The translations under genes and the position numbers were made by a program. A stretch of 64,000 nt of DNA from Eledone cirrhosa (Eukaryota), in contig OZ024740.1 of assembly GCA_964016885.1 (NCBI GenBank), forward strand, positions 332,382,001-332,446,000, written 5' to 3'. The notes under the pieces were generated by a model. It saw only the letters and a list, made by a program, of their open reading frames with translations, ran no database searches and was not told where the DNA came from. Position 1 is the stretch's first letter. The number at the start of each line of letters is the position of its first letter. Below, piece after piece: positions 3,212 through 60,192 of this stretch.

Positions 3212-3360
3212 TATATATATATATATATATATATATATACATATATATATATATATATATATATATATATATATATATATATATATATATATATATATAT
3301 ATATATATATAAAATAAAGTTAAATAAAAGTCAAATGATTAAAATTTAGCTTCGTTTATT

Positions 3361-3415
3361 ACTGCTATATATATTTCAGTGACAGCCATCTTTGGCTGTG
3401 ACCTCTTCAGGCAGT
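3361..3415 (-). ncRNA. Minimal type I hammerhead ribozyme (inverted-arm copy)
   Basis: Reverse complement of 4075-4129. Confidence 0.8.
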
Positions 3416-4074
3416 TTGAATTAGTATGGTATAGACAAGTACATATGTTGTTTAGGTGTATGATATTGTCAATACTCTGATATGCCCAGTTCCTTGTTGG
3501 GTTGTTAATTCACTGGGGAACTGGAGTCATATGAATTCAAACAAACGAATTTTAGTGTCACAGGTCCCCTTCTCCTCTCATTGGTCAGTTATTAGTGTTG
3601 TCATTGTTGGAGTTAGCTTAAAAATTGATAAAATGGTAGAAGGGACAAGGTGTTGAAGGAACAAAATATCAAAAAATGTGTCAAACTTCCCATTGTTCAG
3701 TTCTGAGAGCATTCCTCAGTCAGAAGTCTATAGAATTCTTTCTGGGGTGAGGCTCCCTATAGACTTCTGACTGAGGAATGCTCTCAGAACTGAACAATGG
3801 GAAGTTTGACACATTTTTTGATATTTTGTTCCTTCAACACCTTGTCCCTTCTACCATTTTATCAATTTTTAAGCTAACTCCAACAATGACAACACTAATA
3901 ACTGACCAATGAGAGGAGAAGGGGACCTGTGACACTAAAATTCGTTTGTTTGAATTCATATGACTCCAGTTCCCCAGTGAATTAACAACCCAACAAGGAA
4001 CTGGGCATATCAGAGTATTGACAATATCATACACCTAAACAACATATGTACTTGTCTATACCATACTAATTCAA

Positions 4075-4129
4075 ACTGCCTGAAGAGGTCACAGCCAAAG
4101 ATGGCTGTCACTGAAATATATATAGCAGT
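4075..4129 (+). ncRNA. Minimal type I hammerhead ribozyme
   Basis: ACUGC-CUGAAGA-stem II (ACAGCC/GGCUGU)-GAAAU-AUAU-AUA-GCAGU; 2-bp stem III with a palindromic loop, typical of PLE hammerheads. Confidence 0.85.
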
Positions 4130-4295
4130 AATAAACGAAGCTAAATTTTAATCATTTGACTTTTATTTAACTTTATTTTACACTACTCCGGAGTAACCAA
4201 ACCAACCTGCGCACTTCGTCGAGTGCTCCAGCCTGCATACTGAGGTGTTGGTATACAACCAACATAAACTCAAAATCTATATATATATATATATA

Positions 4296-4545
4296 TTAAA
4301 ATAAAAGATTAAAAAAGTTTAAGCAACGAATCGCTGCTTTTACTCTTGGTTGCAACGTTTTTTGAAATATTCACTTCTGCATTCACAGATTAACTTTGTT
4401 AGTTTCAGAAGATCCCTTTAAGAGTGAAAGCAGCGATTCTTTGCTTAAACTTTAATCGTTATTTTAATAAATATTTGCTCTACGGTTCTTATATAGTTGA
4501 TATATATTTATCCTTATCGAGCCCTCTTCGGATTTTAGTCTTCAA
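4296..4545 (+). mobile_element. Small fold-back pLTR insertion with variant hammerhead (4401-4451); opposite-strand copy at about 7267-7470
   Basis: 4296-4347 is inverted to 4421-4468. AGUUU-CAGAAGA..GAAAG..CUU-AAACU; tail hairpin 4477-4526. Confidence 0.7.
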
Positions 4546-6004
4546 ATTTATTATTATTACTATATATATATATATATATATATACACACATATATCTATA
4601 TATATACATTGTTACCTTTTTTTGTTCATTCAGAAGAAGAGGTCTCACTACAATCTTATACGTAAGACATTTTAAACACACATTTGAACTTGGTTGATAG
4701 GGTTAAACGTTTGCATCTCTTCTTCCATTAACAGTGTAATCGCTGTATTGGACGACATCTCCGCCCATATCACTTTTGAGTGAAGACAACTAAATATCAA
4801 TAACCCCAGAATGTGAGACATAAATCTAAGCAGTTGTTTTGATTTCATAATTAATTTTGATTCATATACTCACAAAAATGTATTATTAAATATATTCTAG
4901 CTTATGTATTATCACCGATACAACCATACACATAGCTGCGTATATTTATGAGATCGTAATTTATCAGTTAAACACATCTGTATATCAATCATGACGTAGC
5001 TAATCAAGACTGGGATATCAGGAAGTATCAGTATCTATTTAGTTGGCCAGAGTAATCGAGCTCTCTTCACATCGGATGTAGGTTACGAAAATAATTTCCT
5101 ATCCTTACGTGACAGAAAGGAAGAAATTGCAGCTGATATAACCTAAGTGAACGAGTTTGTATACTATAAAACTGTAGAGAAATCATTTATTTCGTAAATG
5201 TATTTTGACAGATCCTAGTTTAGAATTGTAAAGTAATTATATATGACTTCCAGAAAATCTTAATACGTAAAGTGTCCCCTATTTAATTAGAATATATAAC
5301 GCTGATACTTAAAGGAAAAGCCCCAAACAAGCTTCATACGAAGGCGGAAATATGCTGACATCTTTCTATTAATAATTGAGTATACATGATATATATTCAT
5401 GTAATGCCTAGTTGAAAATTAACTGACTCAGACATATCTAACTGTAGAATATCCAAATATACAACAAGTTTCTATCCGTAGAGATTCTGAAATAGAATGT
5501 TATTTTCAGACTAGATCAACAATTATTTTAACAATTACACAGCACCCTAACATATATAAAGGTATATGTTTCTAAAAAAATAGATTATCATTATTACACA
5601 TTTTTTCTCCTTAGAAATATTGTATTTTAGTCGTTTGTCATATTAAACGATGTTCAAATAACATTTTTAGTTCAAAATAGTTTAGGAAACAGCTCCTAAC
5701 AGGGAAACATATTGTGTGCTTAAATTAGTTATTTTTCAATAGACTGATCATTTCGCCTGTGCAAGAAAAGAATTGTCAGACATCGAATAACACACATACG
5801 CCAGGAAAATGGGTATGAAATCGATTCAGCAACTGAGTAACTTTGAAGTATTCAGTAATTTATTGGGGTCCATTCTTTATTCTATTTACAAAAAGGTTAA
5901 TTCTCAATATATATATATACACAGACATATATATATGTATGTATATATACATATAACGATAACTTGATGAAACTCTTACATTTGTTTTGATTATATATTC
6001 CAGC

Positions 6005-6250
6005 ATACATGGCTAAGAGTGTGAGATGTTAGATTCACAATTAACAATCATAAGGTCATGAGGTTAATATTCGAGTGTGCCTTGTGTTTTTGAACAAACA
6101 TCTTTGATCCACTGAGCTTGCAAAAGTAAATTTTACCTGCAATCGAAATGATCATCTGTGTCATATATTGTCCCAGTCTAATTCCTTCTATGTACTATAT
6201 TAAGGATACACATGCATATAGCATATAAATGTCAGGAACATAATTTTGTG
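6005..6250 (+). mobile_element. Degenerate tRNA-derived SINE
   Basis: Weak similarity to the SINE at 57427 (TGGCT..GTG head; TTGTGT..TTGA.CAA; CCACT.AGCT). Confidence 0.4.
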
Positions 6251-57760: not shown

Positions 57761-57879
57761 ACCATACATACACACACACACATTCACATACACACACACA
57801 CACACACATACAGCCACACACGCCCACACACCCCACACATACCCCACACCCCACACATATATATATATGATACGTATTT

Positions 57880-58145
57880 CCTTGGAAAAGGTAAAGGAAA
57901 GAAGAGTACTCTATGTATAGTACAGAGCTTTTTAGTTATGTTATAAACAATACAATATCATTATTCCATTACCCAAGGTTTCACGGAGTCAGTTGATTCT
58001 AAAATAAGCGTCTGGATCCGTTCATCAGATAGAAATATTTATTTGGATATAAGATATGGTATTAACATCTATTACAGTATATATCTCATATCCAAATAAA
58101 GATTTCTATTTCATGAATATAATGTGTTGTTTATTACATAATTAA
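57880..58145 (-). mobile_element. Fold-back pLTR with hammerhead (57964-58034 minus)
   Basis: UUCUAU-CUGAUGA-ACGGA..UCCGU-GAAAC-CUUGG-GUA-AUGGAA; tail hairpin 57904-57928. Confidence 0.78.
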
Positions 58146-58205
58146 ATATATAAATATCATATATATATATATATATATATATATATATATATATATATAT
58201 ATATA

Positions 58206-58345
58206 TAACGATGGAAATGTGGTAAGGAACCAGGTGGACCATAACGCACCAAAGTACTCAATACTTAGGGTAGTAGAGTGGGTAATAGTCCAGAATAAGC
58301 CGTCGAAACGGTTTGAGCTCAGCCGTCGGGGTCCTACTCGTTCCT
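58206..58345. mobile_element. 140-bp minimal derivative of the 25971-28588 family
   Basis: 58206-58287 is the tail (minus), joined to 58287-58345, which matches 28451-28509 (plus). Confidence 0.85.
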
Positions 58346-58433
58346 ATATATATATGACCTTTTCTGTTTTCAACGGAAATTTCAATACTTATATATAATT
58401 ATATATATATATATATATATATATATATATATA

Positions 58434-58815
58434 TTGAGTATATGTTGGTTGTATACCAACACCATAGTATGCAGATTTGAGCACTCGACGAAGTGCGCAG
58501 GTTGGTTTGGTTACACCGGAGTAATGTAAAATAAAATAAAATAAAATAAATAAATCAATTGTTTAAAATTTAGCTTCGTTTATTACTGCTATATATATTT
58601 CAGTGACAGCCATCTTTGGCTGTGACCTCTTCGAATAAGTGTGGTATCGACAAGTACATATGTTGTTGAGGTGTACAACATATGTACTTCTCTATACCAC
58701 ACTAATTCAGACTGCCTGAAGAGGTCACAGCCAAAGATGGCTGTCACCGAAATATATATAGCAGTAATAAACGAAGCTAAATTTTAAACATTTGACATAT
58801 ATTTTATTTTATTTA
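58434..58815 (-). mobile_element. Fold-back copy of the 3311-4277 family (hammerhead 58711-58765 plus)
   Basis: Tail 58434-58527; arms about 58550-58667 and 58676-58812. Confidence 0.88.
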
Positions 58816-59877
58816 TATATATATATATATATATATATATATATATATATATATATATATATATATATATATATATATATATATATATATATATATACTT
58901 ATATATATATATATATATATATATATATATATATATATATATATATATATATATATATATATATATATATGGGTTGTCTCCCCTTCCCGCTTCGTGTCGC
59001 TATGATACTTCCTCAGTCAAAAACTGCTGGAATTTCAAATTTGGCGGTCATTCGAGGTGAGAGAAAGCAACTTTACGGACACAACTTTTGACAGCGGTAA
59101 GAAATTGTTTTCTTATATCTATGTTTAACGGGCTTCCACTGATGATTTATAAGTACCCACCTAAATATATTCTTACATGAATATATATTAGGCTTCTACA
59201 TAAACTGGAAACATTCTCCCAACTTGTAGAAAACTTATAATGAAACAATTGTTTGGAAAGAGAGATATACTTTAACTTTAATTATATCTCATAAAATAAT
59301 ACAACTGGTTTTTCCACATTATACATATTGTTAGCACCCCAAACACTTAAATTGGGTTTATATTTTAATATAACCTAATGTTTGTTGAGTGAGATGGTTA
59401 CCAGTCAGAGTTTAGCTTTAAACTATCTCTGTTATTGTATTAAATATATATATATATATATATATATATATATATATATATATATATATATATATATATA
59501 TATATATATATATATATAGAGAGAGAGAGAGAGAGAGAGAGAGAGAGAGAGAGAGAGAGAGAGAGAGAGAGAGAGAGATACTAGATGATTCAGTGAATTA
59601 CTGGTGGTGGTACCTGTGTATCGACCTGTCACTCCCGGTTCGCAGAGAATTTGCTCAGCGTCAACCATAGAAATTATGGGACCGACTCCATTATCATTGT
59701 GTTCTTCAGACAGGGGATTTGACAAAAAAAATGTACATTTTGACGCATTGCCAGACCGAAGAGTAGATCGATAATGGATCGGGTCCATCATTACTATGGC
59801 TGACTGCTTGATACATAATAAAACTCTAAATACATGTAAAAGTAACTTCATCTTTCTTTTATATATATATATATATA

Positions 59878-60192
59878 TGATATTAATAAATGGAAACTAT
59901 ATTTATAAAACCATATTTATTCTATTATATATATTTCAGGAAAAACTACCCAGGAAAAACTTCCTGGATGTGTAAATGTTTATAAAACAAACTTTGTATT
60001 TTATCTGATGAGAGCGTACCAAAGTGTTGGAACCCTTGAAATATATATAATAGAATAAATATGGTTTCATAAATACAGTTTCCATTTATTATATCATTGA
60101 TATTATACTCCAAAAAACTTGTCGACTGCTTCGAATCAGTTATAAATATATATATTTGTTGAATTACCAACAAATTAAATATCCGTCTTGCT
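59878..60192 (+). mobile_element. Fold-back copy of the 17240 family (hammerhead 59999-60055)
   Basis: Left arm 59878-59937 inverted to 60037-60098; UUUUAU-CUGAUGA..GAAAU-AUAU-AUA-AUAGAA; tail 60099-60192. Confidence 0.85.

Follow-up and report, generated by a model that had tools for sequence, protein, structure and literature searches.

Head-to-head insertions in the window

The window analyzed here is a stretch of 64,000 nucleotides (nt) from Eledone cirrhosa (assembly GCA_964016885.1, contig OZ024740.1, positions 332,382,001 to 332,446,000 of the forward strand), microsatellite-rich and with 34.5% GC, in a genome of 3.0 Gb. Our subject is a set of insertions related to Penelope-like elements (PLEs) that it contains. 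An earlier, sequence-only reading of the window had listed 13 of them as fold-back insertions of 0.2 to 2.6 kb, mostly located in (TA)n and with outward-facing 3' ends. After masking simple repeats, we searched for local inverted matches and then aligned the arms pairwise at each listed site. Inverted (head-to-head) arms, 84 to 100% identical, were recovered at all 13 coordinates, confirming that these insertions are real, and their measured sizes of 201 to 2617 bp (together 8.3 kb, or 13% of the window) agreed with the range given before. The PLE identity and the outward-facing 3' ends were likewise upheld. In all 13 insertions, the outer end of one arm was longer by 67 to 98 nt, a segment hereafter called the tail (cut to 35 nt at 55862); the arm bearing it is the long (L) arm and the other one the short (S) arm. 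Defining a TA flank as at least six TA per 20 nt, a density found in 6% of the 20-mers of the window, we observed such flanks on both sides of 10 of the 13 insertions, on at least one side of 12, and on neither side at 55862, in line with the proposal that many families share one target and one architecture. The (TA)n context hides any target-site duplication. A fixed order of modules had also been proposed; the head-to-head architecture held, but the orientation did not, the tail-bearing arm being on the left in 6 of the 13.

The 13 insertions, named here by their listed start positions, represent nine families (A to I). Family A comprises 3311 and 58434. The former (3312 to 4278, plus strand) lies between two (TA)n tracts and consists of an inverted S arm (3312 to 3733), a 23-nt spacer and an L arm (3757 to 4278) with a 98-nt tail (4181 to 4278), the arms matching over 424 bp with 100% identity. 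Its L arm harbors a type I hammerhead (4080 to 4128, plus), the minus-strand mirror copy of which starts at 3410, and a stem, ACTC-N32-GAGT-GCT (4185 to 4227, plus), is found immediately 3' of the S site. The latter (58435 to 58813, minus; arms of 140 bp, 95%) has L on the left and S, with a hammerhead at 58716, on the right. Family B is represented by 25971 (25972 to 28588, plus), in which the arms match over 660 bp (99%) with a 1220-bp asymmetric middle; the inverted S arm spans 25972 to 26620, and the long arm is made of the end of an open reading frame (ORF) and the 3' untranslated region, with an 80-nt tail. Both arms carry hammerheads with a U3-A8 core (26072, minus, and 28408, plus). 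The dominant product had been described as non-coding, which does not apply to this insertion; it encodes the C-terminal part of a Hydra-type PLE protein (26582 to 27286, plus) with a CxCx5C-type linker and a GIY-YIG-type endonuclease, near-identical to an intact ORF of 719 amino acids (aa), P0001.

Family C includes 17240 (17240 to 17672, plus; 174 bp, 90%), with a hammerhead core at 17483, and 59878 (59879 to 60192, plus; 68 bp, 94%), with a hammerhead at 60005 in its L arm; both have S on the left and L on the right. The family D insertion 49629 (49633 to 50661, minus) is a partial tandem with two L tails plus an inverted S arm, the arms within it being 93 to 97% identical, and it contains a hammerhead remnant and a TCTC/GAGA stem in the leader beyond L. 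Family E (4296; 4297 to 4560, plus; about 55 bp, 93%) has S on the left and L on the right; of its hammerhead only the 3' half remains, and the tail holds a GCTC/GAGC stem. Family F (8887; 8888 to 9212, minus; 56 bp, 84%) is old and degraded, with the tail on the left, an ACTC/GAGT stem and no hammerhead core found. In family G (14465; 14465 to 15291, minus; 370 bp, 94.5%), the L arm with its 67-nt tail (14465 to 14531) is on the left, and the S arm, with a hammerhead at 15224, is on the right. Three insertions fall into family H: a palindrome at 55862 (55862 to 56062, plus; 80 bp, 99%), cut at hammerhead stem I, with a truncated tail and no (TA)n flank; 56726 (56726 to 56927, minus; 38 bp, 95%), with L on the left and a hammerhead remnant; and the H-like 57880 (57870 to 58145, minus; 37 bp, 89%), with L on the left and a hammerhead at 58028. 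Family I is found at 56955 (56954 to 57392, plus; 130 bp, 94%), with S on the left and L, with a 94-nt tail, on the right.

Four related insertions were absent from the earlier list. Three are solo L arms on the minus strand, of family A (3012 to 3211, between TA runs), family E (7250 to 7466) and family B (38508 to 38956, with a hammerhead at 38688). The fourth is a family B head-to-head pair without overlap (58208 to 58344), in which a tail-only L arm (58208 to 58288, minus) is joined to an S arm (58286 to 58344, plus), an arrangement that self-copying cannot produce. In the window and in the retrieved loci, different PLE families stack in each other's (TA)n flanks, as seen for 56726, 56955, 57880, 58208 and 58434 within 2.1 kb.

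Copy numbers, coding copies and clade

Copies were counted genome-wide by exact patterns; these gave 5,615 matches for family A, 8,903 for B, 1,208 for C and just 9 for E. Family B junctions numbered 7,065 for S-(TA) and 21,711 for L-(TA), a ratio that subfamily variation renders rough, and a cross-family pattern for the leader beyond L matched 547 sites. Upstream of long copies we found reverse transcriptase (RT) and endonuclease frames in families A and C, and copies in which the leader continues yielded ORFs for B, E, G and I, those of E and G being the N-terminal/RT part and that of I, with RT and endonuclease pieces, lying in loci L234 and L255. Linking each family to a coding master, as had been suggested, was hence achieved for six of them; for D, F and H, which have the same architecture and stem, no ORF was found in the loci examined. 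Family B forms tandem arrays of full-length 3.5-kb units with the intact ORF P0001. Two four-unit arrays (L228 to L231, G000:C1:91476589-91487245, and C1:437200365-437210987) are candidate source loci; two units of the first were translated, and both ORFs were intact.

The Hydra clade comprises PLEs with a C-terminal endonuclease (EN+), including Hydra-1_Obim of Octopus bimaculoides, with a preference for (TA)n and a hammerhead; its proteins feature an RW motif, DKT replacing DKG, a CxCx5C linker, no CxxC in the GIY-YIG core and CxxC/CxH around E/N (Craig et al. 2021, PMC8557442). Family A has the N-terminal and RT motifs RMRWK/DKTN, families B and E share RLRWR/DKTG, and G has RLRWR/DKTN. The A and B proteins have a CNC-x5-C linker, just one C in the stretch from VY/IY to YIG, a CxxC that precedes E and a CxH that follows N, without CxxC inside the GIY-YIG core and without the CCHH motif; the linker of family I resembles that of A and B, and the family C copy is mutated there. 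By eye, proteins of the P0001 family match the published Hydra alignment. A hammerhead near the 3' end and insertion into (TA)n, also typical of the clade, were both observed, B having the U3-A8 variant and F no detectable hammerhead. Pfam gave no family for P0001 or the window ORF, and among 2,018 homolog matches, mostly unnamed, there was no clade name. Judged from sequence, the insertions are 5'-truncated copies of Hydra-type PLEs of at least nine families, six of them linked to ORFs, with the clade assigned by motifs and the by-eye alignment match.

Nematis, considered first, was ruled out by the clade motif definitions, and the ORF motifs of A and B likewise fail those of Neptune, Penelope-Poseidon and Naiad PLEs. 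Non-LTR retrozymes, elements lacking long terminal repeats (LTRs), were ruled out as well, the copies being head-to-head pairs or solos that grade into ORF-bearing copies and not head-to-tail units with a complete hammerhead.

Insertions pair two fixed 3' ends

In every family the arms end at two fixed 3' ends, S and L, 67 to 98 nt apart and abutting (TA)n. Counted from the hammerhead pattern, those of family A are at +100/104 (S) and +200/202 (L); in family B they are at 0 and +81, and family C likewise has two fixed ends. Both lie upstream of the ORF ATG in copies in which the leader continues. We then carried out an automated, deduplicated census of 88 of 90 loci of family A (two segmental-duplicate loci excluded), 90 loci of B and 30 of C, taken as the first exact-pattern matches along contig C1. 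Among 97 adjacent head-to-head pairs, 87 were S+L, none was S+S, 2 were scored L+L, and 8 had one arm that was not resolved; one of the two scored L+L is a full-length body with S at its far end. In 11 of the 87 S+L pairs, as in the window pair at 58208 to 58344, the L arm lies entirely within the tail and has no sequence in common with the S arm, and simple self-copying therefore cannot be the whole story.

Solo copies also carry S or L ends. Inspected by eye, 30 family B L-junction loci comprised 16 S+L pairs, 11 solos, 1 L+L and 2 others, indicating that palindromic pairs make up about half of the insertions. A tiny non-coding palindrome had been considered the dominant product; tiny non-coding copies do far outnumber ORF-leading ones, but only about half of the insertions are palindromes. 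In families A, B and C, junction position and filler vary from copy to copy, and arm lengths grade into ORF-bearing copies. Short templated fillers at the junctions, for example at L029, resemble microhomology repair.

At 7 of 30 family A L ends (L035, L040, L041, L047, L053, L084 and L131), a (TC)n run of 3 to 22 units separates the end from the flank, and the leader there reads TCTATCT. Such runs were seen at 0 of 66 L ends and 0 of 40 S ends of family B and at 0 of 15 L ends of family C. They may reflect telomerase-like stuttering at initiation which, if true, could feed microsatellite growth.

Arms stop at a family-specific wall

The arms stop at a family-specific position, the wall, where some ORF-leading copies also start. 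Of the 30 paired S arms in a family B S-junction sample, for which nothing upstream of -19 had been selected, 28 stopped at -64 to -45. Over all family B loci, a set biased by a pattern starting at -54, 108 of 197 arms stopped within -64 to -53, peaking at two A residues that are each preceded by a pyrimidine. In family A, 35 of 132 arms stopped at -225 to -221, at a Y-A step that also lies inside an 8-nt palindrome. By eye, the join to an inverted S arm lay at about -49 to -63 in 5 of 25 B-type copies continuing past L. In one other run the summed depth of contigs, which is not copy number, dropped some 16-fold at the wall and some 460-fold past L. The walls of C, E, G and I are blurred, by subfamily differences or small samples.

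The wall is likely the transcript 5' end; its Y-A position resembles an invertebrate initiator. It may instead be an RT pause site. A splice acceptor was set aside, since by eye the first base of many family B arms is the A of the AG. A search by eye for a cap-derived extra base at family B junctions was ambiguous. In Drosophila Penelope, a promoter within the element has been reported (PMC2377424).

A conserved stem follows the start sites

In 14 of 18 window tails, representing 8 of the 9 families, RCTC is found 3 to 8 nt after S, followed by GAGY 11 to 38 nt later, against a background of 2.3%; in family G, the S-site stem is present in genome copies. The stem is followed by RCT, and RCTC...GAGY-RCT occurs 3 to 8 nt 3' of both S and L. 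Its pairing is compensatory, with ACTC/GAGT in A, B, C, F, G and I and GCTC/GAGC in D, E and H (one G-U copy). A stem just beyond L was found in five of six families, namely, A, B, E, I (GCTC/GAGC) and D (TCTC/GAGA). Three more window families, checked afterwards, showed it in one, partially in one and not in one. One of six published Hydra consensi ends before the tail; by eye, four of the other five have the stem followed by ACT: Hydra-2_Amil, Hydra-1_Ajap (two copies before the ATG), Hydra-2_Ajap and Hydra-1_Crog (GCCC/GGGC). The families are related, and these occurrences are thus not independent observations. The stem likely recruits or positions the RT.

Hammerheads

A hammerhead descriptor, widened to the U3-A8 core after family B had been seen, gave 10 matches in the window, 9 of them inside listed elements, while 30 shuffles gave 3 in total (mean 0.1). 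Enrichment of hammerheads and of (TA)n flanks, which had been suggested as a check, was thus found for both. The claim that each insertion carries a hammerhead or a remnant held for most: by eye, a core was recognizable on at least one arm in 9 elements, 49629 and 56726 retain remnants and 4296 only the 3' half, and no core was found in 8887. Rfam returned 115 rows with E values of 1 or less, none of them a hammerhead and all sub-threshold matches to microRNA, small nucleolar RNA or small RNA. In family B, the long loop of stem II contains the wall (window 28408 and 26072; L106:1445-1545), so that an RNA starting at the wall would miss the catalytic 5' half; family E seems to be arranged similarly. 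As tiny family B copies contain only the 3' half, hammerhead cleavage is not needed for them. Six of 117 family B L arms begin at two positions just after the predicted cut, a hint of hammerhead self-cleavage.

Proposed mechanism and alternatives

We propose, with a probability of roughly 0.7, that the insertions are 5'-truncated, head-to-head Hydra-type PLE insertions made anew at each site by twin priming at two leader sites in cut (TA)n. The element's enzyme would cut the (TA)n tract on both strands, and two RTs, one primed by each cut end, would begin copying at S and L in the 5' leader RNA, the UAU of the start site pairing with the TA primer and the stem recruiting or positioning the RT at each site. 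With the transcript 5' end acting as the wall, most cDNAs would run off after 60 to 300 nt, and the two cDNA 3' ends would be joined by microhomology end-joining. If both cDNAs reached the same end, a palindrome would result; if the L copy stopped early, the pair would be non-palindromic. Long copies would derive from read-through RNA of tandem arrays, which exist in family B. For the Poseidon PLE, extension of both strands in vitro, with two internal start sites bounding the tail, has been reported (PMC11167929). A more far-reaching version, to which we give even odds, holds that the duplicated RCTC...GAGY-RCT stem, conserved across coral, sea cucumber, sea louse and octopus, sets the two starts, that a dimeric enzyme with one RT per stem primes each (TA)n break end, that every insertion is a twin-primed S+L product, that tiny palindromes are integrated leader run-off, and that the RT stutters like telomerase, adding microsatellite units.

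Several observations weigh against twin priming. One true L+L pair exists (L191), and the census favors young subfamilies because its loci are first exact-pattern matches along C1. In the Poseidon assay, both strands use the same start sites, without homology to the cut DNA (PMC11167929). The stem was incomplete beyond L in family G, not seen in family K and degenerate in the published octopus consensus Hydra-1_Obim. L003 and L052 carry a 36- to 38-nt inverted piece that starts at an 8-nt palindrome and has no S end, and look like aborted fold-backs. Finally, off-wall pairs are symmetric too, 9 of 12 within 17 nt compared to 1.9 expected by permutation (a level attained in 0 of 100,000 shuffles), which fits one shared RNA template and fold-back equally.

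The last two points are also those that speak for the alternative of fold-back, in which one cDNA self-primes on a short internal inverted repeat and, in a mixed form, the resulting sense copy then anneals to a second cDNA that was primed at the other site. To the off-wall symmetry and the S-less short inverted pieces, seen also in L190, are added the family A hotspot on the 8-nt palindrome and the fact that self-priming has been proposed for head-to-head junctions (PMC3846280). Yet no strong palindrome is present at the family B wall, where junctions vary base by base, pure fold-back cannot yield the 11 non-overlapping pairs among 87, and it leaves unexplained the exact end of the second arm, a site at which solo copies also end. 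Fold-back as the sole mechanism, as first assumed, is not supported, because each of the two arms terminates at its own fixed start site and some pairs have no sequence in common; as a rival to twin priming it appears unlikely overall, although for the symmetric cases the mixed form, with capture by a second cDNA, still competes.

We consider it very improbable that the tiny palindromes are non-autonomous retrozyme-like or MITE-like (miniature inverted-repeat transposable element) units, transcribed and recopied whole. Their very high copy number and recurrent size would suit such units, and animal retrozymes have been proposed to be PLE derivatives (10.64898/2026.07.22.740005), but junction position and filler vary among copies, arm lengths grade into ORF-bearing copies, an L-ended palindrome is without the stem found past L, and the core of the hammerhead is missing from tiny B copies. 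Since junctions differ between copies, the insertions are not a self-replicating palindromic element either. An assembly or amplification artefact is hardly credible. The 3311 arms are 100% identical and their junction was unbridged in four runs, from which contigs are filtered and in which a copy private to the assembled individual may be missing; however, most arms are 84 to 99% identical with fixed asymmetric ends, and raw restriction site-associated DNA reads of three other, independent samples contained (TA)n loose ends at S (2,596 to 2,907 reads) and at L (7,398 to 10,149 reads). In the same samples, 1491-1508 was joined to 1549-1577 on the opposite strand, with several of these joints coming from only one or two read starts; a read-end pile at 1502 sits on AATT, probably the library restriction cut, and was excluded.

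Other features of the window

Inverted arms with a hammerhead-like remnant at 2382 to 2464 and 2716 to 2798 face inward across (TA)n, tail to tail; together with like cases at L047 and L051, they suggest repeated insertion into one tract. Additional hammerhead-core repeats, mostly adjoining (TA)n, lie at 1826 to 2111, 8440 to 8640, 19542 to 20025 and 53020 to 53170, and three of them recur in other loci. The body of a Hydra-type PLE, decayed but with pieces of RT and endonuclease, occupies 20277 to 21706 (weak GIY-YIG Pfam match, E 0.027). Other retroelement fragments were found at 1 to 1148, 30732 to 31256 and 45304 to 48252, including an endonuclease/exonuclease/phosphatase domain at 46173 to 46784 (E 1.8e-06) and C-terminal frames like those of long interspersed elements at 1 to 1148, repeated at 30864 to 31256. 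A repeat like a short interspersed element (SINE) recurs at 7877 to 8238, 9917 to 10090, 32473 to 32703, 44775 to 45148 (inverted and tandem there) and 51073 to 51264, and presumably resembles the octopus SINE.

Comparison with known systems

Truncated copies in inverted orientation that carry a tail on one side only have already been published, as have palindromes at junctions, hammerheads in pseudo-LTRs and TA targeting (PMC8557442; PMC3846280; PMC4209133; PMC8969392), and a 5'-truncated inverted copy was noted for Penelope-13_HM (PMC8557442). PLEs have recently been active in Octopus vulgaris (PMC13282606), and those of Chlamydomonas give very short insertions (PMC9977147). For the S+L rule, the wall and the stem, we found no description in searches of literature and supplements, a scope outside which lie Arkhipova 2006, Evgen'ev and Arkhipova 2005, figures, bioRxiv supplements and most of the Craig supplement. 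The families are new, their clade and architecture are known, and the pairing rule, the wall and the cis-stem are apparently undescribed. How PLEs form inverted repeats with a one-sided tail has been named as an open task (PMC8557442), and two start points with stems would help to explain how Hydra-type PLEs build mirror-image ends. The tens of thousands of minimal insertions constitute a natural dataset, with a near-strict S+L rule and a candidate cis-element showing compensatory changes, and the intact 719-aa ORF in tandem arrays makes the mechanism testable in an in vitro assay format that has already been published. In genome annotation, the stubs represent products of retrotransposons and might be mistaken for MITEs or microRNA hairpins.

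The elements share with the published Hydra clade its motifs, a single ORF of about 720 aa, a type I hammerhead and the (TA)n target. They differ in number, since the paper has one octopus family and few families overall while at least nine occur here in 64 kb, the copy numbers of the counted ones ranging from thousands to tens of thousands, and in size, the family B unit being 3.5 kb compared to generally under 3 kb (PMC8557442). Head-to-head inverted arms, outward 3' ends and a tail on one arm are general features of EN+ PLEs, but the tail there is 30 to 40 bp and not 67 to 98 nt, and most units here have two arms and no body (PMC8557442; PMC3846280). The junction has been explained by self-priming on an antisense template (PMC3846280), whereas the ends described here point to two primings. 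Poseidon PAc is similar in that both strands are cut and extended, two adjacent internal starts bound the tail, the target is AT-rich and hammerhead cleavage is dispensable; its starts, however, are reported to lie inside the ORF, without target homology or strand difference (PMC11167929), while those found here are upstream of the ATG, of TAT type, one per side and each followed by the conserved stem. Animal non-LTR retrozymes are also short, non-coding and PLE-related, with a type I hammerhead, but they form head-to-tail tandems, in contrast to the head-to-head truncation products of autonomous elements described here (10.64898/2026.07.22.740005).

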